Source: Octopus vulgaris (taxonomy: Eukaryota). From it: 64,000 nucleotides of DNA. Position numbers and translations under genes: made by a program. Every line of letters begins with the position of its first letter. Within the stretch, counting starts at the first letter, position 1. The notes under the pieces were generated by a model. It ran no database searches, was not told where the DNA came from, and saw only the letters and a program-made list of their open reading frames with translations. The stretch covers positions 6,572,001 to 6,636,000 of the forward strand of contig OX597817.1 in NCBI GenBank assembly GCA_951406725.2, written 5' to 3'. Below, one piece after another: positions 4,336 through 58,940 of this stretch.

Positions 4336-4553
4336 AATAATCCTTTCTGTTATAGGCACAAAGCCTGACATTTTGGAGGAGTTGAGGGCCAGTCGACTAG
4401 ATCAACCCCAGTACTCAACTGGTACTTAATTTATCGACCCCGAAGAATAAGAGGCAAAGTCGACCTCGGCGGAAATTGAACACAGAACGTAGCAACGGGC
4501 GAAATACCGCTAAGCATTTCACGTGGCGTGCTGACGATTCTTCCAGCTCATCA
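4336..4553 (-). mobile_element. SINE family B, tail type 2 (ttgtgcctataacagaaaggattatt)
   Basis: Reverse-complement match to the family B body (gagctggaagaatcgtcagcacgcc...gtcgataaattaagtaccag). Confidence 0.85.
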
Positions 4554-19485: not shown

Positions 19486-19522
<37 letters not shown>

Positions 19523-19540
19523 CATACATCATATATATAT

Positions 19541-19768
19541 CTTTTATTTCTTTATTGCCCACAATGGGCTAAACATACAAGAGACAAACCAAGACAGACA
19601 AAGGGATTAAGTCGATTACATTAACCCCAGTACGTAACTGGTACTTATTTATCGACCCCGAAAGGATCAAAGGCAAAGTCGACCTGAGCGGAATTTGAAC
19701 TCAGAACATAACAGCAAACGAAATACCGCTGAGCATTTCGGCAGGTGTGCTAACGTTCCTGCCAACTC
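19541..19768 (-). mobile_element. SINE family B, tail type 1, inserted in (TA)n
   Basis: Reverse complement matches 47845-48075, including tail tatgtttagcccattgtgggcaataaagaaata. Confidence 0.9.
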
Positions 19769-19823
19769 ATATATATATATATATATATATATGTATATTA
19801 ACCCCTTTATAGATATGTATATG

Positions 19824-23867: not shown

Positions 23868-24072
23868 AATCCTTTCTACTCTAGGCACAAAGTCTGAAAT
23901 TTGGGGGCAGATTAGATCGAAACCAGTACTCAAATGGTACTTAATTTATCGATCCCAATATTATGAAAAGTAAAGTCGATCTCGGCGGAATTTAAATTCA
24001 GAACGTAAAGACAGACGAAATACCGCTAAGCATTTCGCCCCACGTGTTAATTATTCTGTCAGCTCGCTGCCT
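23868..24072 (-). mobile_element. SINE family B, tail type 2, full length with ~19 bp TSD
   Basis: Family B body. Flanks taagtcttgagaatataat (23852-23870) and taagtgttaagaatataat (24073-24091). Confidence 0.9.
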
Positions 24073-24423
24073 TAAGTGTTAAGAATATAATAGCCAAATA
24101 TATTTTATATATTATTTGAAATGCCTGATTACATTTTATTGGAAGTAAATGTATAAATTGTACGTAATTATTGTGAGTTTATCACCCGTATGAACACCGA
24201 CTTCGTCACAGGCGTGGTTTGAAATCAAAGCGTAATTCAAGTAAACTAGCTACTCATTTATTAGTATTTTATTCCCATAATCATAATCAGCATTTCGCTG
24301 TTAAGCGTGTTGAAGAGCACCGACAATAACAGTATTTTCAAACATTTTAAATGAATTGTAAATAATTTCGAAAAGTATTACAATTACACTCACAAAAATG
24401 CAGATGCTTAGCTGATATTTGGA

Positions 24424-24792: not shown

Positions 24793-24805
24793 ATGGTGGT
24801 ATATA

Positions 24806-25023
24806 AAATGTGACCTCGTGAGTACCGTTGGCGATTTTTTCCTCTGTCTTCCCTTCTCGGGATATTTCCTTCTCCTATGTTTCCGACGAAGAGCTCCGCT
24901 CGAAACGTTAAACCCCATTTCTTCCCTTCTTTCCTGAGCGTCCAATAATACTATATTTGTTCTACGTCCTCGCGTTGTTGTGTTTTTTTTTTGTTTTTTT
25001 TTGTTTTCTTGTTTGGATTAACT
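24806..25023 (+). mobile_element. Penelope pLTR-like short repeat with hammerhead-like motif (24879-24913)
   Basis: gttt-CCGACGA-a-gagc tcc gctc-GAAACGTT-aaac. Ends ggattaac followed by TA repeats. Homologous to 30906, 33035 and 40380. Confidence 0.75.
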
Positions 25024-28000
25024 ATAATATATATATAGTTTTCAAGAGCTGTAGTATATTAGCTTCCATTTGACAAGTGTGTATCGGTATTTGTGACAGC
25101 GAATTGAAAACAACGGGGCCCCGAATGTCTTTTAGAAAGAGAAAAATTGATTGTTTCTTTTCCCCAAAAACAACAGTTTAATTATATACCTGAGCTAATG
25201 CAAGTTACATTTGTCTGTGTTACTGTGAGCGCAAATTATCAAGTCAACCTACCAAATAATATGCTGCTCAACCAATCAATCATTTATATCTCACTCATGG
25301 CGCTGCATGTTTCATGTGCAAGGCATATATTTTTCATAAACTACACAAATCGATAACTTACTATCAGAGGAACATTTTGCAATACAGTAATAATTTATTC
25401 TATGGACTTCAACAAAGTTTTCTACTTTCGAGTGTTACTAAGAATGTTAATAGACGACTCAAGACTATGGAGAAGTATGTTTCAAGATGCAACGTAGTGG
25501 GTTCGTAACATATATCGCTTCTCTTTACCTCTGTGTGTGTGTCTGTGTGTTTCTTTGTGTGTGTATCCCTGTGGATTTCAGTTTAGTTAGGAATATTACA
25601 TATATATGAAATTTTCTCACACCATGGGTACGTGCAGCTAAAGTACAAGATAAACATTTATTTTATTATAAACAAACGTTAGCTTTATGACAATATTTTC
25701 ACTTCATTCAAGAAAAATAACTTCGTTAAAAATGTAATTTATACTTTGTATATAACCAAACATTGTATTTTACAATGTGATGACGGTAACTACTTATCTG
25801 TTATGAACATGTCAGTAAGTAGTGACAGATTGATTATTACATAACGGAAGAAAACTACGATGTATAATATGTTTGCTTTAAACATGATAATGGCCGATAT
25901 AAGAAAGCAAAACTAACATCTTTTAATCGTCAGATTTGCAATATCCATTTCAAATACCTAGATGCGATGAGAATATTATTCGACACATTCGACACATTAA
26001 TTTTAAGCAACGAATAATAAACAAACGAAAACAACGAGAATCCATTATTTGGTTGCTTGATATGCCAGAAATTGCAGCAAATCTTTCCTAAATTACACTC
26101 GACTCTTCTAGCAAGGCAAGTACGGAAATGCATATTAAATTATACACGATAAATAATTGAAATAACAACCATAATTGAAATGACAATGGTCGGGGCGGGT
26201 GGAAAAGTATACCCGAATTTAATGGGACTTTTCATCCTTGATAATTTGGCTCTCTTTCCACAGCTCTGTACTACATTCAGCTGCCCCATAAGAGTATTTA
26301 AACTGAAAAGAGTTTTGAGCAATAATACAGCCATGTACGCAAACATTATTCTTTTTCTATGTGTAGTTCTTTCGCTCAATATATGATCTAGTATTGGCAT
26401 ATAAGTTCGTGCTATTGTTATGAAAGCTATCACTTAATATATCGACCTCGTGTATTTTCATAGACATCTGCAGCAGTAATAGTAAAAGAAATTCCGTTCT
26501 CAAGATACAAATTCAGGTACATGATTCTATTTTCTGGGAAATAATATGTTACATTACCTATCGTAATAAAGCATGTTTTTCAAAGAAATTACTTAAATTA
26601 TTCAACTAATAATAACTCAAACCTGATATGTTCACGAATTTCTGTTATCTAAATCGACATGCTGTTCGCTTCACCACTTAAGTGTTCCTGTATTATTGGC
26701 TATCCAGGTATAGCGGACACGATGAAATATAATAAAGATCCAATTTGCGGAATGAAACACAAATATTGTGCTACAAAATGAATAGCTCAAATTAGTAGTG
26801 AGGATACTACATAATGGGGGAGCTTTTAGTATGCCTTTATTATCGAGTTCAAATCATCGGCAGTATGTATTTTGGACAGGAATATGTTCCAAGAAAATCA
26901 TTCACTGATATCTAATAAAGATACGTTTTAATTTCACTTATTGTTATGAAATTATATCATTTGAATATCTGTCGTAAAAATGATATCACTATATCACATG
27001 ACTTTATTATACACAAAGCACAGCTTAACATTTTAATTATGTCTTTACCAGTGAAAAAATATCTTCTGTAAATTTATTTACTGGCAGAAACATTAACATA
27101 TAATTTACTATTTGAACTTTAAATGGCATCTCTTTTAAAAACGATATTGCATTTACAATGGCATATTCATTTTCAGACCAATTCACCATAGTTAACAGAA
27201 TTCACCAACGAAACATTCTTCGGTCCCCTATCCTGGTCTCCGAAAGTTTAAACTAACTTTGCTTTTTATACTAGGGTAATAAATACTTTTTTTTATTCTT
27301 AACGCCGATACGTTCTGTTAACAAAATTATCTCGTATAAACCATAAAGACCCTGAGAACATAGAAACAACGTGTTGACGATTAATATACATAATTTATTA
27401 ACCAGGTGGATGTAACTTATTTCTTTCAAGCCAGATCAATTATCCAACACGGCAGTATGGGTGGCTTTTATATTTATCCGCAAGATTTCAATAAAAATAT
27501 GACCGGTAACAGTGACAGACAATTTAATAATTAATAAATTTTAACACTATTTTTGTTGCTAGCTGACAGGTGACATTAGAATGTACAAATTGTAATTGAA
27601 TGTCTTGCTAAACTATATTGCCAAATAATTTCTGTTTAATTATATCGCACATTTTCCTTCGTGCTTTATGGTAAATATTTTACAAATATATATATTTTTT
27701 TTTTCAGTTTAAAAAAAATATGTATTGTGGGTCAAGTTATTTGAATTCTACTGAAAGTTTAACCGAATCTAAGATTTTTAAAGTTATGATATCTTTCGGA
27801 GTTTAATTATTAGATTTTCATTATTAGTTGCGAGGAAACGTCAGGGTCACTGATTGAATTCTTAGAATATCGGACAAAATATAACTTGCCATTTCGCTAC
27901 AGCCATTTACTTTCAGACTTTATATATTTGTGAATTATCTCTGCTTACGATGTCGACCGAATAATTATCAGTCAATATAACTGTCTGTGCCGTCTCCCAA

Positions 28001-30862: not shown

Positions 30863-30905
<43 letters not shown>

Positions 30906-30909
<4 letters not shown>

Positions 30910-31086
30910 ATCCAAACAAGAAAGCACACAAAAACACAACAACGCGAGGACGTGGAACAAATATAGTATTAGTGGACGCCCAGAAAAGAAGGAGGGTTTA
31001 ACGTTTCGAGCAGAGCTCTTCGTCGGAAACATAGGAGAAGGAAAGATCCAGAGAAGGGAAGACAGAGGAAAAAATCGCCAACGGTA
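30906..31086 (-). mobile_element. Penelope pLTR-like short repeat with hammerhead-like motif (30996-31030)
   Basis: Minus strand gttt-CCGACGA-a-gagc tct gctc-GAAACGTT-aaac. The 3' end ggattaac abuts (TA)n. Confidence 0.75.
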
Positions 31087-31216
31087 AACATAGATATATA
31101 GATAAAACACATATGTATATACATACAGATATAAAGAAATTAAAACTCCAGTTCCAGTGGGAGAATACTAGCATCATGCTGGAAACTTTATTTGAATTTA
31201 AATCAAACTGTCTAAC

Positions 31217-32962: not shown

Positions 32963-33034
<72 letters not shown>

Positions 33035-33037
<3 letters not shown>

Positions 33038-33300
33038 TAATCCAAATATTAACAAAGAGAAAACACAACAACGCGAGGACGTGGAACAAGTATAGTGTTA
33101 TTGGACGGTCAGGAAAAGGGAGAAAGAAGGAAGACTTTAACGTTTCGAGCGGAGCTCGTCGGCAGAAACATGGAAAAAGGAAAGGGCCAGGGGAAGGGAA
33201 GACATAGAAAGAAAATCGTCAACGCTACACACGCGGTCACATATTGAAATGACCGGAAGGGAATGAGTGAAGAAAAAGTTCTTTAAAAAGACAGGAGAGT
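33035..33300 (-). mobile_element. Penelope pLTR-like short repeat with hammerhead-like motif (33136-33169)
   Basis: Minus strand gttt-CTGCCGA-c-gagc tcc gctc-GAAACGTT-aaag. The 3' end ggattaac abuts (TA)n. The 5' boundary is approximate. Confidence 0.72.
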
Positions 33301-34017: not shown

Positions 34018-34103
<86 letters not shown>

Positions 34104-34112
34104 ACTAACTAA

Positions 34113-34179
<67 letters not shown>

Positions 34180-34192
34180 ACTAACTAACTAA

Positions 34193-34284
<92 letters not shown>

Positions 34285-34374
34285 ATATATATATCTATTT
34301 ATCTACCTATCTGTCTGTCTACATATCTGTCTGTCTATCTATCTATCTATCTATCTATCCATCTATCTATCTAT
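34018..34374. repeat. (CTAT)n microsatellite with (CTAA) interruptions
   Basis: Read directly from the sequence. Confidence 0.98.
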
Positions 34375-36100
34375 CTTCCGCGGTTGGATCGCTGCCTTGT
34401 ATAGCGGCATCCGATCGGTGATTCGGGTGAACGGTCACCTGTCGAAACCGTTTGACATCACGCGTTCGGTCCGTCAGGGGTGTCCCCTGTCGGCGCTTCT
34501 GTATGTATTGACTCTCGAGCCGCTACTGCGGAAGCTGGCGACGCTGAGGGGCATCCCACGGGAACTGGGTTGCGGGACGAGCGCGTCGGCATATGCGGAC
34601 GATGTCACCGTCATAGTGTCGAGCGACAAACACATCAAGATGATAGGCGAGACACTAAGAAAATGCGAAACGGTGACGGGAGCAAAGATTAACCCGGAAA
34701 AGTCAGTGGGTTTGCTACTCGGCACCTGGAGAACCAAGCCCATGCCATCCGACTTCGGCTCAGTAGTGGGACGCTGGACGGACGGACCGGTTAAATTGCT
34801 CGGGGTCTGGTTCAGTCCGGACCTCCAAATGGATAAGAACTGGGACGAGATCACGAGTAGAGTGGTCGCTCTCAGCCAAACATGGGCCGAGAGAAAGCTG
34901 TCTCTAAAAGGCCGGGCGGAGGTGGCGAACGCGTACATCGCATTCGTCATCGATTACCGCCTGACCGTCGTACCTTGTCCCGACGCCACCATCACCAAAC
35001 TGGAACGCATACTCTTACGCTTCCTGTGGAAGGGTGGCGTTCCGATGGTGAGGAAGTCCATTTGCTGTCAACATCCGTTGAATGGAGGACTGGGCATGCC
35101 GTGGTTGATGATGCGCAGGCATGCGCTGAGACTGCGACATCTCTGGAACTTCATCGACGACGGTGAACAGGTGTGGGCGCCGTTTGTGAGGCGCGACTTC
35201 CCGCAGCTCGTCTCACTGACCGAACTGCAAACGTGGATCAAAAAGAGACCGAAACTGGGCGATTGGCACCGAGAGTGTCGCCATGCTCTACAGCAGCTCT
35301 GCCGACCGGTGTCAAACTTGTGCAACTTACAAACGACTAAAGCGTTCTATAGAGGACTAGTGGAGGGGAGGTCCGACGACACACTCGGGGCAAACCTGGG
35401 CGTCGACGAGGAATTCCTAACCCGCCTGTTCAGGACGACGTTCGGGCCGGGGCCTATGGATAACTTCCAGAAATCCCTGGCTTGGCAGTGCTATCGAGAC
35501 GCACTACCTGTTCGAGAGAAGAGCTACAGACACGGTTCGAAAACCATCACGGGACCGACCTGCCCGAGATGCGGTCAGAGCGACGAAACCGTTCTGCACG
35601 CACTCGTGCAGTGTCCAGATATTTCAGAGCTGTGGTCCTTCGTCGAACAGCTGTTGTCACGTGTAAGTCGGGCTCGCCTATCGGCCGAGTCTATCGTGAA
35701 TATTGTTCCACCACCTTCCTTTAAACGGGAAATGAAAACGGTTTTCGTTATGCTGATGGCTATGGCGAAAGAACGTGTGTGGTGGACGCGTTTGAAAGGA
35801 CTGCAAACAAACACCTTCCTCTCTGGTCAGTCTCTCGTCAACTTTTTCAAGTACCACTTGAAAAGGAGGATGAGAATAGAGAAGAAGGCTTTGTCGAACG
35901 AATGTTTTAATAAAAAGTGGGTAAAAGTGGCATAAATGGTCAGTATGAAAGACGACACTATTTTAAGCATAAATCTGTAACCAAAAGAGACAACGAGAAG
36001 TAAGGCGACTTACTCATGTGCTTTTTTCGAATTGTCTGAGGTTACCTTGGTCCTTTTTGTAGGTTTTTCTTTCCAAGGCTACACCTAAACTGTGAACCTT

Positions 36101-36152
<52 letters not shown>

Positions 36153-36304
36153 CTTTTTTATACACCACACAACCCACAGATCCCTATTGATCAAACGTTT
36201 TTTTTTTTTTGTGCCCCACCTATCCCACCTCGAAAAGAAAAATTCTACATTGTATTTCGTCCATTTTTATTCTGTGTTTAGCCCTGTGTGGCTACAATAA
36301 AAAG
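34375..36304 (+). mobile_element. Tx1/L1-clade LINE copy 1, 5'-truncated (RT C-half, CCHC, 3'UTR)
   Basis: ORF 34397-35935 has VRQGCPLSALLY, AYADD, KINPEKS, LSLKGR, GGLGMP and CPRCGQSDETVLHALVQC. The 3'UTR ends aataaaaag followed by (tatc)n. Confidence 0.95.
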
Positions 36305-36404
36305 TTATCTATATATATATCTATCTATCTATTTATCTACCAATCTGTCTGTCTACATATCTGACTGTCTATCTATCTATCTATCTATCCATCTATCTAT
36401 CTAT

Positions 36405-38377
36405 CTTCCGCGGCTGGATAGCTGCCTTGTACAGAGGCATCCGTTCGGGAATTCGCGTGAATGGACATCTATCGAGACCTTTCAACATTGCACGTTCGGT
36501 CCGTCAGGGATGCCCCCTCTCGGCGCTTCTATACGTATTGACTATTGAGCCACTACTGCGGAAGATGGCGACGCTGAGGGGCATCCCGCGAGAATTGGGA
36601 TGCGGGACGAGCATGTCTGCATACGCGGACGACGTCACCGTCATAGTGTCAAGCCACGAGCACATCGAGCGGGTCGGCGAGACACTGAAAGACCACGAAG
36701 AGGTGACAGGACCAAAAATCAACCGGGAAAAGTCAGTGGGCTTACGGCTCGGCACCTAGAGAAGCAAGCCCATGCCGTCCACTAGTACCTCCGTCGTGGG
36801 ACGCTGGACAGACGGCCCGGTTGAGTTCCTCGGGGTCTGGTTCGGTCCGGACCTCCAAATGGAGAAGAACTGGAACGAGATAAAGAGTAGGGTGGTCACT
36901 CTCGCCCGGCAATGGGCCGAGAGGAAACTGTCCCTAAAAGGTCGGACGGAGGTGGCGAACACATACATCGCGTCCATCATCTACTACCGCCTGACCGTCG
37001 TACCTTGTCCTGACCCTACCATCACCAAACTAGAACGCATTCTCTTCCGCTTCTTGTGGAAAGGATGCGTCCCGATGGTCAGGCGATCCATTTGCTGTCA
37101 ACACCCGTTAAAAGGAGGGCTGGGCATGCCGTGGTTGATGATGCGCAGACACGCGCTTAGACTGCGACATCTCCGGCTCTATGTAAACGACGGTGAACAG
37201 GTGTGGTCGCCGTTTGTGAGGCACGCGTTCCCGCAGCTCGTCTCCATGACCGAACTGCAGTCGTGGATCAAAAAGCGGCCTAGGAAGGGCGAATGGCACC
37301 GCGAGTGTCGCGTTGCTCTCAAGCAACTCTGCCGTCCCGGGTCAACCTTGAGTGACTTCAACACAACCAAAGCATTCTATAGGGGATTAGTGGAGGGGAG
37401 GTACGATGACGATCTTGGGGCAAACCTGGGCGTCGACGAGGAATACCTGACCCGCCTGTTTGAAACGACTTTCGGGCCGGGACCTATGGACAACTTCCAG
37501 AGATCCCTGGCCTGGCAGTGCTACCGAGAAGCGCTACCCGTTCGGGATAAGCTCTATAGGCATGGCACGAGAAACACGGGGCCGATCTGCCCGAGATGCG
37601 GGCAGAGCGACGAAACCGCTCTGCACGCAATCGTGCAGTGTCCAACAATCTCCGACCTGTGGGCTTATGTCGAACGACTGCTGTCACGTGTGGGACGTGT
37701 CGGTTTATCAGTCGAGTCTATCTTTAATATCGCCACGCCTCCTTCCTTCAAACGGGAAGGAAGAGCTATTTTTATCATACTTGTGGCTATGGCGAAAGAA
37801 TGTATCTGGTGGACGCGCCTGAAAGGATTAGAGACAAACACTTTCCTCTCTGGTCAATCTCTCATCAACTTCTTCAAGTATCACTTGAAGACGAAAGTGA
37901 GAGTAGAGAGGCAAGTTTTGTCTAGTGAATGCTTTAAAAAAAGATGGGTGAATGTAGCAAGGATGGCACGTTTGAATGACGAGGCCACCTTGACTATGAT
38001 TCTATGAACCGTAAAAATTAATACAGAGAGTTGCTTATTTGCAAAAAAAAAAGAAATATAACATGTGACTTCATTGACCGAGGTTACCGTTGTCTTTTCC
38101 GTAGGCTTTTCTTTCCACGGATAAACCTCACCTGTCCTCCCCTTTACACTTCACATTGACATTTCTGTGATAACGATCGCTATTGATCAATTTTTTTTCC
38201 TTTCCCCCTTTTTTTTGTTTTGTTTTAATTTTATCCCCCCTTTTTTGTCCTCTTTCTTTTCTTTTACGATCCCTTTTGATCGAAAACCAAACTGCCTTTT
38301 TTTTACCCCCAAAAGAAAAGCTCTACCTTGTAATATGTCCTGTCTGTGTGCAGCCCTGTGTGGCTAATAAAGAAACA
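36405..38377 (+). mobile_element. Tx1/L1-clade LINE copy 2, 5'-truncated, different subfamily
   Basis: Same motifs across ORFs 36427-36759 and 36772-38007, with one TGG->TAG stop at 36757-36759. Ends aataaagaaaca followed by (tatc)n. Confidence 0.95.
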
Positions 38378-38436
<59 letters not shown>

Positions 38437-38457
38437 ATATATATATATATATATATC

Positions 38458-39812
38458 TGTGTGACACCGCGGTGCTTCTCCGGAAGAGTCTGGACCTCAA
38501 AGTAAAAGCAATTTTCCTAGACCCAGTGAGTAGGCTGGTCGTCTTGGATATCGATGGCAGTAATGGGTGTGCTTTTTGACTGATTACACTTTTTGCACCG
38601 TCTTTAACAGGTTGGCCAGGTTTCTTTCGACGTCTAGAGGCTTTCGTGGAAACGCCTTGACCTTTACTTTTAGTGGAGGATTGGAACGCTACCTTGAACA
38701 CGCATCTAGAGTACGTGCATAGTAACAGGAATAGGAGGGGATGTAAATGCCTCAAATACCTGCTCAGACGTTTCCAACTATCTGACAGGTAACGACTGGA
38801 CCACGCGAATGTGCCAATGTGGACATGGAACAACAACATCAGGTCGTCCAGATCGTATTTAGATAGAGTATTCTGTAGGAAAGCGGATAAGGATAGTGTA
38901 GGTTGTCCACAATTCCATATACATATATAACAAATTTGTGACTTGTACACTTGACTTAGATAAGACACATAGGCAGCGTCCAGGTTACTGGAAGCTGAAC
39001 GCGTCGTTTACGGCACACTAGGCTTACAGGGACCGGATTAGCACATTAGTTCAGAGTGCACTGACGGACGCCATCGTCAGCAATAGAGGGTGATATGCCC
39101 TAAAGAAAGCCCCCACGGCAGAATCAGTTAGGTACAGTAATGCCCTAGTATTAAACCGAAATAGAATAGAGGGAGACCTAGTTAAGAAATTAGAAGAGGC
39201 ACTTAGAACTGGCATCATGTCCAACGTACTAGCAGCGCGGTTGGCTCTCGACCAACATTTCAATGTCAAACACGAAGGATGCGTTTTCAGAGCTAGGATG
39301 CGTGCTCTAAGGAACGAAGGAGTCGGAGCCGTCTGCGAAGCCCGAGTGGCGGGGGTGCAACGAGGCAAAAAAGCCACCATTAGGTCTCTAACAGATGAGC
39401 AGGGGTGCGAATTACTCGAACCTTAAAGGATGTGTGAGGCATTTCAACAACACTTTGCCCGACTGTTCGGCACAACTGGTGGGGTCATAAGGTAGAGTGG
39501 ACTTTAGTGCCTACCTACATAGCCTACCACGACTCTCAACAAGAGTGGCGGAGTGTTGTGAAAGACCCATCACAGCTGAGGACGTATAGGATGCAATGGC
39601 AGGCTGCGCGGGAGACAAATCGACAGGCTTGGATGGTTTGCCCGACGAACTTTATTATCATTTGCCAGACTTTGGAGGCGTCTTGGAAGCTGTTTACTGC
39701 AACTGACATCAAAACGGGAGTAATCCCGTTTCTGTAAAGCGAGGTGCTGTGCCACTGCTAAAGAAAGATCCAAATAAGGGGAACTTCATGGATAACTTCT
39801 GGCCCATCACTC
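38458..39812 (+). mobile_element. Tx1/L1-clade internal fragment (APE endonuclease to start of RT), decayed
   Basis: TAVLLRK..., RLVVLD, LLLVEDWNA (GDWN), WTW...RSYLDRVF, GYWKLNAS, GLDGLP, LLKKDPNKGNFMDNFWPITL. Multiple stops and frameshifts. TATC repeats on both sides. Confidence 0.88.
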
Positions 39813-39878
39813 TTATCTATCTATTTATCTGTCTCTCTATACACGCACAGGCACGCACACACGAACACACACACACAC

Positions 39879-40312: not shown

Positions 40313-40379
<67 letters not shown>

Positions 40380-40381
<2 letters not shown>

Positions 40382-40585
40382 CCGCGTGTGTATCGTTGGC
40401 GATTTTTTTCCTCCGTCTTCCCTTCCTTGGATCTTTCCTTTTCCTCTGTTTCTGACGAAGAGCTTCGCTCGAAACGTTAAACCCTCCTTCTTTCTTTCCT
40501 TTCCTGACCGTCCAATAACATTATACTTCTTCCACGACCTCGCGTTGTTGTGTTTTCTCTTTGTGTTTTTATGTTTGGATTAACT
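40380..40585 (+). mobile_element. Penelope pLTR-like short repeat in (TA)n
   Basis: Homologous to 24806, 30906 and 33035. (TA)n on both sides. Confidence 0.78.
40448..40482 (+). ncRNA. Minimal type-I hammerhead ribozyme motif, best-preserved copy
   Basis: gttt-CTGACGA-a-gagc ttc gctc-GAA-ACGT-T-aaac. Canonical CUGANGA and GAAA, 4-bp stems I and II, palindromic ACGT stem III, predicted cut after GUU at 40478. One extra A after the core. Confidence 0.7.
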
Positions 40586-41176
40586 TTATATATATTTATC
40601 ATCATCATATATATAAATTAGAAATAAGCTACCACAATATTTCACTTTTGTCTGATGTTTCCCGCATGCGTAGAATACTACTGAGATAGCAGGCGTAAAT
40701 AATACGAGACCACCACCAGAAAACCCGATATGGTACAAACAACAGATAAACAACATTATTTCTCAAGAAAATTCCCCGCTTTCCAAAATGCTAAAAGTGA
40801 AACACTACGAGTGTGCAGCTTTTTCAAAGATTGAAAAAAGTAACAAATGAATTTGATGTGGAGAGTGAGAAAATTAAAATATTGAGTTGTTTTGTTGGTG
40901 AAATTATAATCTCCTGTATCGCAAACATAAGAATCGGAAGAAATTGGTGAAAAAAATATTGCGGGCGGGGGAACGCAAATGTCACCACGGACATGCTAGA
41001 ATGATTGGCGTAATTTTCCGTAAATTAAAAAAAAAAAATTTATGCTTTCAAGAGAGCAGAAACCGAAAGAGAGGTGAAAGAGAAAAAGGTGACATTTACT
41101 TTAAAGTGAGAGCAGAAGGTGAAAGAGAGGAGACAGTGAAAGATGTATGTATGTGTATATGAAATGAACGTGTGTG

Positions 41177-44650: not shown

Positions 44651-44829
44651 AAAGATCGAGATTCACCACCAATAGCAAATACAGACACACACACGCACAC
44701 ACACATGGATGCGAGCACATACATACACACACAAAGGCATGCACGTACACATGAATAATGCAATGGGCTTCTATTAATTCATATGTCCCTAGTTGCCTGT
44801 ATTTTGTAATATATGTTTGTGTGTAGAAA

Positions 44830-45040
44830 GCGGAGAGCTGACAGAAGTGTCAGCATGCTGGCAATATTCTTAGTGGAATTTCGTCCGTCTTTTCATTTTG
44901 AGTTCAAATTCCGAAGTAGTAGAATTTTGCCTTTCATTCTTTTGGGGTCAATAAAATAAGTTCTAGCTGAAAACTGCGGTTGATGTAATCGACTGCCCGC
45001 TACAAACCGAACTTGCTGGCCTTGATCGAAAATATGAAAT
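44830..45040 (+). mobile_element. SINE family B, decayed
   Basis: gcggagagctgacagaagtgtcagcatgc...gagttcaaattccg...gcctttcattcttttggggtcaataaaataag. Confidence 0.8.
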
Positions 45041-47844: not shown

Positions 47845-48075
47845 GGTGAGCTGGCAGAATCGTTAGCACGCCGGGCGAAATGCGTAGCCGTATTTCGTCT
47901 GCCGTTACATTCTGAGTTCAAATTCCGCCGAGGTTGACTTTGCCTTTCATCCTTTCGGGGTCGATAAATTAAGTACCAGTTACGCACTGGGAGGCTCGAT
48001 GTAATCGACTTAATCCGTTTGTCTGTCCTTGTTTGTCCCCTCTATGTTTAGCCCCTTGTGGGTAGTAAAGAAATA
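47845..48075 (+). mobile_element. SINE family B, tail type 1, young copy with perfect 19 bp TSD
   Basis: Box A tggcagaatcg, box B gagttcaaattcc, central gcctttcatcctttcggggtcgataaattaagtaccag. TSD agaagacacattcttcagg at 47828-47846 and 48076-48094. Confidence 0.95.
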
Positions 48076-49076
48076 AGAAGACACATTCTTCAGGTACTGC
48101 ACAGTAGGACTAATACAGAAACCACGTGGTTTCAAACTGAGCTTCTAAACAGCAAAGACTACACCCTAAACAATCTCTTACAGACATACACACATACAAA
48201 ATATACTCACACATACACACACACACCCACGCGCACACATACGAAATAATGTGTTTGTGTCATTGTGTATGTATTTATGTATGCAGATTGATTAGAGACA
48301 GAAGTTTACTGACGGATACAGAAAGAGAGATACGGAGAAAGACATGTATAGCTAATTGAAGAAAGATGTGAATATGTGCGCTGCTAAGATTGTTTAAACG
48401 AATAATTCTCTCGACCAGAAATGATACGTAGCCTTTTGTAAGTGGTTTAAATCGACTTTACGTTAAATATCATTAATCTTAGCTGCTAAATTATTTTCTT
48501 GAGATTACATGTGAATACAAATTCTTAATATTGGGATAAATTATTCTGGAACCAGAAAGAAAGATGAAATATCTTGCCATGTTAAGCATTAATTAGAAAA
48601 GCTAGAGTAGGTACTTTATTTCGCTCTAGTTGTTATCGAATTATGCGAACAGAGCACGACAGACAGTTAAGATTATAAGTTTAATTAAACCTATATAGAT
48701 ATTTATATATAACTCTAAGAAGAAATCTTACACCAGCTATGTGTGAACGCATAGGTAATGCAGTCACCCGGCAATTGATAAGAGTATATTTTGAAAATTA
48801 CGAAACAGACTACTCTTTAGAATTTGATTAGCCCCGTCTGTCGCATATTTTAAGCATAGTTTCCTGTCCCACATGCATTCGCATACACACGTAGTCACAC
48901 AGGTCTAGCTAAGCATAGACATTGCGCACAATCATATGCAGGTGTGTATGCATATCTGACTGTGTGTATACATGCATGCATATCTGACTGTGTGTATACA
49001 TGCATGCATGTATGCATGTATATATATATACATATATATATATATATGCTAGTATGTATATATGTATATATGCATG

Positions 49077-49905: not shown

Positions 49906-49958
49906 ACATATATATATATATATTTATATATGGGCGCGGCTTTGTGATAAGATATTAA

Positions 49959-50184
49959 GGCGGCGAGCTGGCAGAAACGTTAGCACGCCGGGCGAAATGC
50001 GTAGCCCTATTTCCTCTGCCGTTACGTTCTGAGTTCAAATACCGCCGAGGTCGACTTTACCTTTCATCCTTTCGGAGTCGATAACTTAAGCACCAGTTAC
50101 GCACTGGGGTCGAGGCAATCGACTTAATCCCTTTGTCTGTCCTTGTTTGTCCTCTCTATATTTAGCCTCATGTGAGCAATAAAG

Positions 50185-50188
<4 letters not shown>
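49959..50188 (+). mobile_element. SINE family B, tail type 1, full length
   Basis: ggcggcgagctggcagaaacgttagc...gcaataaaggaata followed by (TA)n. Confidence 0.93.
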
Positions 50189-50247
<59 letters not shown>

Positions 50248-58158: not shown

Positions 58159-58940
58159 TGGAAAAAATAGTCAAGGTAGAAAATGCTAAAATAATCTTAT
58201 AAAAAACGCTTCAGTACAGGTTTCAGTAATCGAGACTTTTTCAACTGTTAATATGGAAAACAATTAAATTTTGGAAAAATTAAAAGATTTTTTAAATGAA
58301 TATTTACATTAATTTAAATATAAGGGACATTTCCCTTGTTTCGTCCTGTCTCTGACTCTCTTGTTTACTCTTTTAGGTTTGAGGTCGTTGTGAATTATTG
58401 GCAGAGAAGAAGAAGAAGAAGAAGAAGAAGAAGAAGAAGAAGAAGAAGAAGAAGAAGAAGAAGAAGAAGAAGAAGAAGAAGAAGAAGAAGAAGAAGAAGA
58501 AGAAGAGGAATGCGGGAGTGCCATGATACTATTAGGATTTTAAATGGTCAAGTGACCTGAAAGTGACTTGATTCAGGGCACTTGACCATTTAACATCCTA
58601 CTACTATCATAGCGCTCACGCATTATTTTTCTAACTTCTTCTCCTCCTCCTCCTACTCCTTCTTCTTTTTCCCTACCAAGAATTCACAACGACCTCGAAT
58701 CCAAAGAGTATACCAGAGAGAGTGAAAGAGAGAGAGAGAGAGAGAGAGAGAGGCGGAAACAAGAAAAATGCCCTTTTGTATTTGATTACTATACAAATAT
58801 TCTTTTAAACAACTTTTCTTTTAATTCTTCCAAAATTTGATTTAACAGTTGCAAAAATCTCGATGACTGAAACCGGTACTGAAATGCTTTTTACAAAATT
58901 ATTTTATCATTTTCTACCTTGACTTTTTGACATTTTTCCA
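58159..58940. mobile_element. ~780 bp palindromic element with outward-facing hammerhead-like motifs (58212-58247 minus, 58846-58881 plus)
   Basis: Arms are reverse-complementary from agtcaaggtagaaaatg / cattttctaccttgact to taaatggtcaagtgacctgaa / ttcagggcacttgaccattta around a loop at ~58562-58570. Two-arm consensus cag-TTGAAAA-agtc tcgat gact-GAA-ACCGGT-A-ctg. Confidence 0.88.

Follow-up and report, generated by a model that had tools for sequence, protein, structure and literature searches.

In the retrotransposition of a long interspersed nuclear element (LINE), the step that is still least settled is how the 5' end of its complementary DNA (cDNA) becomes attached to the chromosome. At the 5' junctions of R2 elements, annealing over as little as 11 bp is described as sufficient (PMC11331408), and R1 elements are reported to stack by inserting into the target-site duplication (TSD) 5' of a resident copy, with microhomology priming the second strands (PMC2718515). 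For L1, whose TSDs are usually given as 4-20 bp (PMC4859970), templated insertions are described in which the copied stretch is shorter than 250 bp and comes from no more than 15 bp away (10.1101/2024.08.27.596794), together with tandem duplications that can be viewed as large TSDs (10.1101/2024.12.14.628481). Here we examine a locus in Octopus vulgaris (contig OX597817.1; "the window" is the whole 64-kb stretch of DNA that was analysed) in which two head-to-tail, 5'-truncated LINE copies of the L1 group (Tx1-like), both on the + strand, lie embedded in a complex (TATC)n microsatellite. We argue, at a probability of roughly 0.5, that copy 1 (34376-36305) was primed in (TATC)n about 100 bp upstream of a resident copy 2 (36406-38377), and that its cDNA was joined by pairing with the first bases of copy 2.

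The two copies begin at the same reverse transcriptase (RT) codon, equivalent to residue 614/615 of P0154, an intact 1148-aa relative from outside the pair. The window contains the word that spans this junction, CTTCCGCGG, at exactly two positions, 34375 and 36405, and the bodies first differ at the 10th base from its start (34384 vs 36414); an earlier reading made without database searches (the sequence-only reading) had given the same starts and the same first difference. It had also seen one interrupted microsatellite ahead of both copies, and this proved correct, with the markers TATTTATCTACC, TGTCTGTCTACATATCTG and TATCCATCTATC each found exactly twice in the window, once in either flank copy (F1 and F2). 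The flank core (80 and 76 nt) differs by 2 substitutions over 76 aligned nt and by one 4-nt unit. Its alignment score of 134 was not reached by any of 20,000 shuffles of the core's 4-nt units, which served as the null model (mean 73, maximum 115). Counting the first 8 body bases, the duplicated unit runs from 34278 to 34383 (106 nt) and from 36306 to 36413 (108 nt), and copy 1 is thus bracketed by a 106/108 nt direct repeat. In a self-BLAST the duplication takes in the flank and the bodies only, the unique upstream DNA being single. TATC stands on both sides of copy 1 and of copy 2, and a TATC(TA)n motif occurs to the left of the flank and again in the tail as it now stands.

The bodies behind this flank are far less alike. 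Their open reading frame (ORF) remnants agree at 1295 of 1601 positions (80.9%), and the differences fall mostly at third codon positions (78/59/173 at positions 1/2/3), a pattern that had been noticed from the letters. Over 531 codons, synonymous divergence (dS) is 0.62 and nonsynonymous divergence (dN) 0.13, giving a dN/dS of 0.21 (bootstrap 0.16-0.27) rather than a value near 1, with dS between 0.42 and 1.17 in all nine 60-codon blocks. The 3' untranslated regions (UTRs) had been called different; they are diverged, yet they are not unrelated, for 208 of 295 aligned positions (~70%) are identical and both end in the common motif GCCCTGTGTGGCT. The copies are not one another's closest relatives either. 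Copy 2 shares 81.8% identity with the ORF2 of P0154 and 76.5% with copy 1, and a quick tree built from 24 proteins places it with P0154 and not with its neighbour (SH-aLRT, an approximate likelihood-ratio support value, 90). From these sequence comparisons we conclude that the bodies derive from different coding subfamilies, whose divergence arose under purifying selection.

The flank is far younger than the split between the bodies, since it is nearly identical (the probability of at most 2 differences in 76 at the body divergence of 0.194 is 1.4e-5) while the bodies differ at a dS of 0.62. Bodies of different subfamilies combined with a recently duplicated flank lead us to reject plain tandem duplication followed by neutral decay (flank 2/76 vs body 19%, dN/dS 0.21, copy 2 nearer P0154), an explanation that the sequence-only reading had also set aside. 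Gene conversion, which the sequence-only reading had held in reserve, fails in the form of partial tracts between neighbours. No conversion tract was detected between the bodies, the longest identical run being 29 nt where codon shuffles predict 30 (p 0.55), and dS is high in every block.

Public records were matched to 36151-38377 with the flank left out; the contig sets came from two organisms, one of them sampled twice and the other once. Three runs matched 45,176, 13,325 and 31,002 contig records, which marks the family as abundant, and a fourth, on raw reads, matched 0. Both 3' ends are multi-copy in all three contig sets, a further point in favour of bodies from different coding subfamilies. 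The copy 2 body and the last 150 nt of copy 1 have depth in each set, far lower at copy 1's end; in set X1 the summed word depth, which is not a copy number, is ~0.07-0.13 million there and 1.3-2.4 million at copy 2's end. In the same set 33 contig records continue past the 3' end into TATC repeats, and the 3' ends of the family abut (TATC)n. Among the matches listed (40 of 160 difference positions), 39 lie in copy 2, 34 of these in its ORF, where copy 1 has the majority letter at 31 of the 34; therefore, the family majority is the coding form. Of these 34 private ORF changes of copy 2, 14 are synonymous (p 0.025 against neutrality, p 0.035 against a dN/dS of 0.21); the set is not purely neutral, and we read it as changes of the source lineage plus decay. 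Among the loose ends listed (18 of 2,323), three rows from X3, the set of the second organism, equal copy 1 exactly over 13, 8 and 9 nt, as judged by eye. Separately, contigs of two of the three runs have a joint from 36664 to 38095 at high depth (614 and 192). It leaves out 1,430 bases within copy 2's body and may come from a derivative of the family that was deleted internally and amplified.

In the origin that we favour, copy 2 would have been resident first and the bottom strand would have been nicked at about 36306, ~100 bp upstream of it. RNA of the copy 1 type would then have been reverse transcribed from the nick, with the cDNA extending beyond the position of copy 2's 5' end. The joining could have followed either of two routes. 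In the first, the top strand would be opened ~108 nt downstream, and its 3' end, bearing the first 8 to ~14 bases of copy 2, would prime second-strand synthesis at the homologous position of the cDNA and leave a long TSD. In the second, the cDNA would anneal to copy 2, lose its unpaired excess at copy 2's edge and be extended back across the flank to the nick by synthesis-dependent annealing; such trimming would explain why the hand-over lies at the very edge and not anywhere along 1.9 kb. Both routes yield flank-body 1-flank-body 2 in one event, and the product is the same for either. One event accounts for both ends because the duplicated segment exactly spans the distance from a TATC unit to the resident's 5' edge. 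Chimeras of two L1 elements with a duplication were reportedly obtained in cultured cells by Gilbert et al. in 2005.

Several observations weigh against this origin. A stagger of ~108 nt would be rare, since usual L1 TSDs are so much shorter, and a divergence of 19% disfavours long heteroduplexes. The evidence comes from one locus only, and no read across the junction was seen, the flank having been left out of the contig matching and the raw-read run having returned nothing. Other points concern the order of events. Of 245 otherwise invariant residue columns, 10 have a change specific to copy 1 and 7 have one specific to copy 2 (p 0.63); with a smaller outgroup set the counts are 12 and 8 of 262. 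Each copy has one premature stop, and copy 1 looks no younger. Copy 2 differs from the family majority at no fewer than 39 of ~1,915 positions (at least 2.0%), of which ~1.1% is post-insertion divergence by a rough split of the rows, close to the flank's 1.3% per lineage (0.2-4.8%). Both flank substitutions disrupt a repeat unit in F2, and none does so in F1. Under a calibration in which a distance of 0.09 equals 25 million years (PMC13282606), a divergence of 1-2% corresponds to roughly 3-6 million years. The one listed private difference in the last 150 nt of copy 1 was dropped as an age gauge, the listed rows favouring deeper regions. Of the homology-guided attachment proposed in the sequence-only reading, then, the different subfamilies and the younger flank stand, and the casting of copy 1 as newcomer does not find the same backing. 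We regard the specific order, with copy 2 resident, as about an even bet. Different subfamilies with homology-guided joining, summed over this and the two explanations next considered, are by contrast quite probable.

Both insertions and the duplication being of similar age, the reverse order fits the ages equally well. Copy 1 would then be the resident, and copy 2 would have been primed in copy 1's TATC tail, its cDNA pairing with copy 1 and being trimmed at copy 1's 5' edge before the flank was copied as a templated patch and the break rejoined via TATC/(TA)n microhomology. The agreement between copy 2's post-insertion divergence and the flank age, the placement of both flank substitutions in F2 and the invariant-residue changes in copy 1, which equal or exceed those in copy 2, all suit this order, and the two occurrences of the TATC(TA)n motif, one left of the flank and one in the tail, would supply the rejoining homology. 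None of the age differences is significant, however, and the scheme needs an extra jump, with a template that would lie 2 kb away from the nick; in tumours, templated insertions are described as drawn from within 15 bp (10.1101/2024.08.27.596794). On balance we consider the reverse order rather unlikely. A history in two steps would start from a tandem duplication of flank plus body, or from unequal recombination between alleles via the microsatellites, after which one body was replaced wholesale, either by cDNA-mediated replacement or by gene conversion from another subfamily. This duplicates the flank without a long stagger, and the (TATC)n(TA)n on both sides of the unit could drive the unequal exchange. 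But the replacement must extend over all 1.9 kb, the diverged 3' terminus included, and end within the first 8 to ~40 bases, while the bodies show neither a remnant nor a mosaic tract. With a donor 19% diverged, ordinary conversion is unlikely. Two rare events are invoked in place of one, and the cDNA-mediated version still requires homology-guided 5' joining, which leaves the two-step history unlikely.

Two further explanations would remove the event itself. Two haplotypes, each with the flank and one of the bodies, might have been merged in tandem during assembly; the flank divergence of 2/76 falls within the allelic range, and no junction-spanning read was seen. We think such an artefact improbable because the window has no gap (0 N) and the unique upstream DNA is not duplicated. 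About 16 nt of microsatellite would have to carry the join, and if the two alleles had bodies from different subfamilies at a single breakpoint, a replacement event would be needed all the same. Alternatively, flank and breakpoint together could recur at many unlinked loci, either as the common 5' end of a non-autonomous derivative or because the site is a hot spot for truncation. The abundance of the family and the chance that TATC microhomology favours certain breakpoints lend this something, but a derivative lacking the endonuclease and half of the RT would not reach a dS of 0.62 at a dN/dS of 0.21, the majority form is the coding form, and a hot spot leaves the copied interruptions of the flank unexplained. 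We give this explanation very little credence.

The assignment of the copies to the L1 group follows from their domains. RVT_1 is found in both (E 2.3e-13 and 8.1e-14), as is zf-RVT, and the best matches among solved structures are to L1 ORF2 (E ~1e-15), with R2 following at 4e-7 or weaker. The full architecture of APE endonuclease (Exo_endo_phos), RT and zf-RVT is present in P0154, which shares 78-82% identity with the copies. The best named protein match is from Argonauta, at 60%. P0111, the sole Tx1-named sequence compared, is 34% identical to P0154 over 384 aa (E 9e-61), and in the quick tree, which had no L1-proper outgroup, it is not joined to the copies with support. The copies likely belong to the Tx1 clade, for which target preference has been defined by a repeated sequence in more than 20% of flanks (PMC4494074); for Octopus vulgaris, 13 L1-Tx1 families with recent activity have been listed (PMC13282606). 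Related loci at the DNA level were found in metagenome contigs (9, all 23-48% identical, and set aside) and none in genome contigs or viral contigs. A side result is a likely (TATC)n-associated, Tx1-like family, represented in this one array by at least three subfamilies.

The ORF2 remnants have 0 frameshifts, with single premature stops at 35933-35935 in copy 1 and at 36757-36759 in copy 2, the latter private to that copy. Truncation has removed the endonuclease and the first half of the RT from both copies, which are decaying, and we assign the pair no function. A stop-free frame that runs from the microsatellite into copy 1 (580 aa from stop to stop) was considered as a case of exaptation and rejected: it is a by-product, because TATC repeats have an open frame, and the stop in each copy, with 20 of the 34 listed private changes of copy 2 being nonsynonymous or stop, also weighs against it. 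Within the 3' UTR of copy 1 lies a (TA)25 run (36100-36150) that has no counterpart in copy 2. The coordinates of all features are collected below.

Features of the tandem LINE locus, numbered by position in the window
Feature	Position	Strand	Remark
Long (TATC)n array with (TAAC)n interruptions	34018..34281	+	Putative target microsatellite upstream of the pair
Flank copy F1: TATC, (TA)6, interrupted TATC units up to the LINE junction	34278..34375	+	
First 8 body bases, same in both copies (10 counting the preceding TC)	34376..34383	+	Putative pairing and hand-over zone
Copy 1 ORF2 remnant, C-terminal RT and zf-RVT	34376..35980	+	About residues 615-1148 of P0154
Copy 1 3' UTR, terminal GCCCTGTGTGGCT...AATAAA motif	35981..36305	+	Last 150 nt multi-copy in public runs
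Flank copy F2: TATC, (TA)5, interrupted units of F1 with 2 substitutions and slippage differences	36306..36405	+	
Copy 2 ORF2 remnant, first codon equivalent to that of copy 1	36406..38007	+	
Copy 2 3' UTR and terminus	38008..38377	+	
(TATC)14 then (TA)n	38378..38458	+	Downstream part of the putative target microsatellite
Third fragment of this element type, further decayed	38460..39817	+	ORF2 residues ~71-525 (endonuclease to RT start)

The third fragment, absent from the sequence-only reading, matches P0154 at 65-68% identity in three pieces and three frame blocks, with stops and frameshifts. It lacks both ends, and TATC-type repeats border it on each side, those downstream being degenerate. 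Its missing 3' end would be unexpected under ordinary target-primed insertion and may reflect internal priming or a later deletion. The degenerate repeat that follows it (39811-39845) reads TATC TATT TATC and then TGTC, a faint likeness to the start of the duplicated flank that is probably due to chance.

Elsewhere in the window, a remnant of a Mariner-type transposase occupies 1031-1861 in two pieces of the same frame (Transposase_1, E 1.9e-22; HTH_48 and HTH_32 weak), and two inverted repeats of 40 nt, at 810-849 and 2068-2107, may represent its terminal repeats. A dispersed repeat of ~240 bp is present in four copies that are 78-86% alike (24800-25037, 30875-31133, 33005-33245 and 40335-40618). 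Every one of them starts beside a (TA)n run, and the repeat is likely a short interspersed element (SINE) or a LINE end tied to TA microsatellites. A second dispersed family, of 160-280 bp and 70-89% identity, has at least six copies (4391-4551, 19491-19770, 23910-24075, 44827-44994, 47845-48081 and 49955-50243), and an inverted pair of ~300 bp with 73% identity and 190 bp between its arms lies at 58165-58442 and 58635-58928.

The locus is unusually readable because the subfamily difference marks where the template ended and the interrupted microsatellite marks the stretch that was copied. On its own it merely illustrates steps described for R1, R2 and L1, and its weight would grow if many adjacent pairs shared breakpoints genome-wide. 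We entertain, tentatively, a wider possibility, that for LINEs which target microsatellites, and so accumulate within shared arrays, the residents may routinely serve as landing pads, a cDNA pairing with a neighbour up to ~20% diverged, inheriting its 5' breakpoint and leaving duplications of ~100 bp. If this were true, a genome with thousands of copies would be a countable natural record of second-strand joining, and some apparent 5' truncation would have been set by neighbours rather than by RT drop-off.

Among described systems, close ones are the Tx1-clade families Kibi, at (TC)n, and Koshi, at (TTC)n (PMC4494074), and crocodilian families at (TTCC)n/(TTTC)n (PMC3812793), which are reported to target microsatellites. 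The present family resembles LINEs of the Kibi and Koshi type in the APE, RT and zf-RVT of the P0154 ORF2 and in the microsatellite on both sides of the pair. Unlike theirs, its repeat is (TATC)n/(GATA)n, a sequence absent from the targets described in those accounts, and a literature search for a LINE that targets (TATC)n/(GATA)n returned no report. Tandem R1 arrays (PMC2718515) and tandem SINEU-3 (PMC4494074), both formed by site-specific elements, are also described as head-to-tail, with a duplicated piece of target between members. Their spacer, however, is given as a TSD of 14-16 bp, whereas here ~100 bp reaches to the neighbour's 5' edge, and unlike those stacks the present pair has a common internal truncation point across subfamilies; for adjacent subfamilies that share such a point, no report was found in the literature searched, which covered few subscription papers. 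In annealing junctions of R2 (PMC11331408, PMC2718515) and in the 5' attachment of L1 by microhomology (PMC10760644), pairing of the cDNA 3' end with homology in the target is described as fixing the junction. For R2 that homology is ribosomal RNA sequence on the element's RNA, whereas here a resident element from a sister subfamily, lying downstream of the nick, would provide it. Templated insertions and large TSDs of L1 (10.1101/2024.08.27.596794, 10.1101/2024.12.14.628481) are described as duplicating nearby DNA by strand annealing or a long stagger, and a long TSD is reported as a fixed family property of the rotifer R9. The L1 cases are somatic or from cell culture, whereas this would be a germline event with the hand-over at the resident's very edge. 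The ingredients are known from R1, R2 and L1, and the octopus locus is likely one natural example of a joining step that has been described in cell culture.

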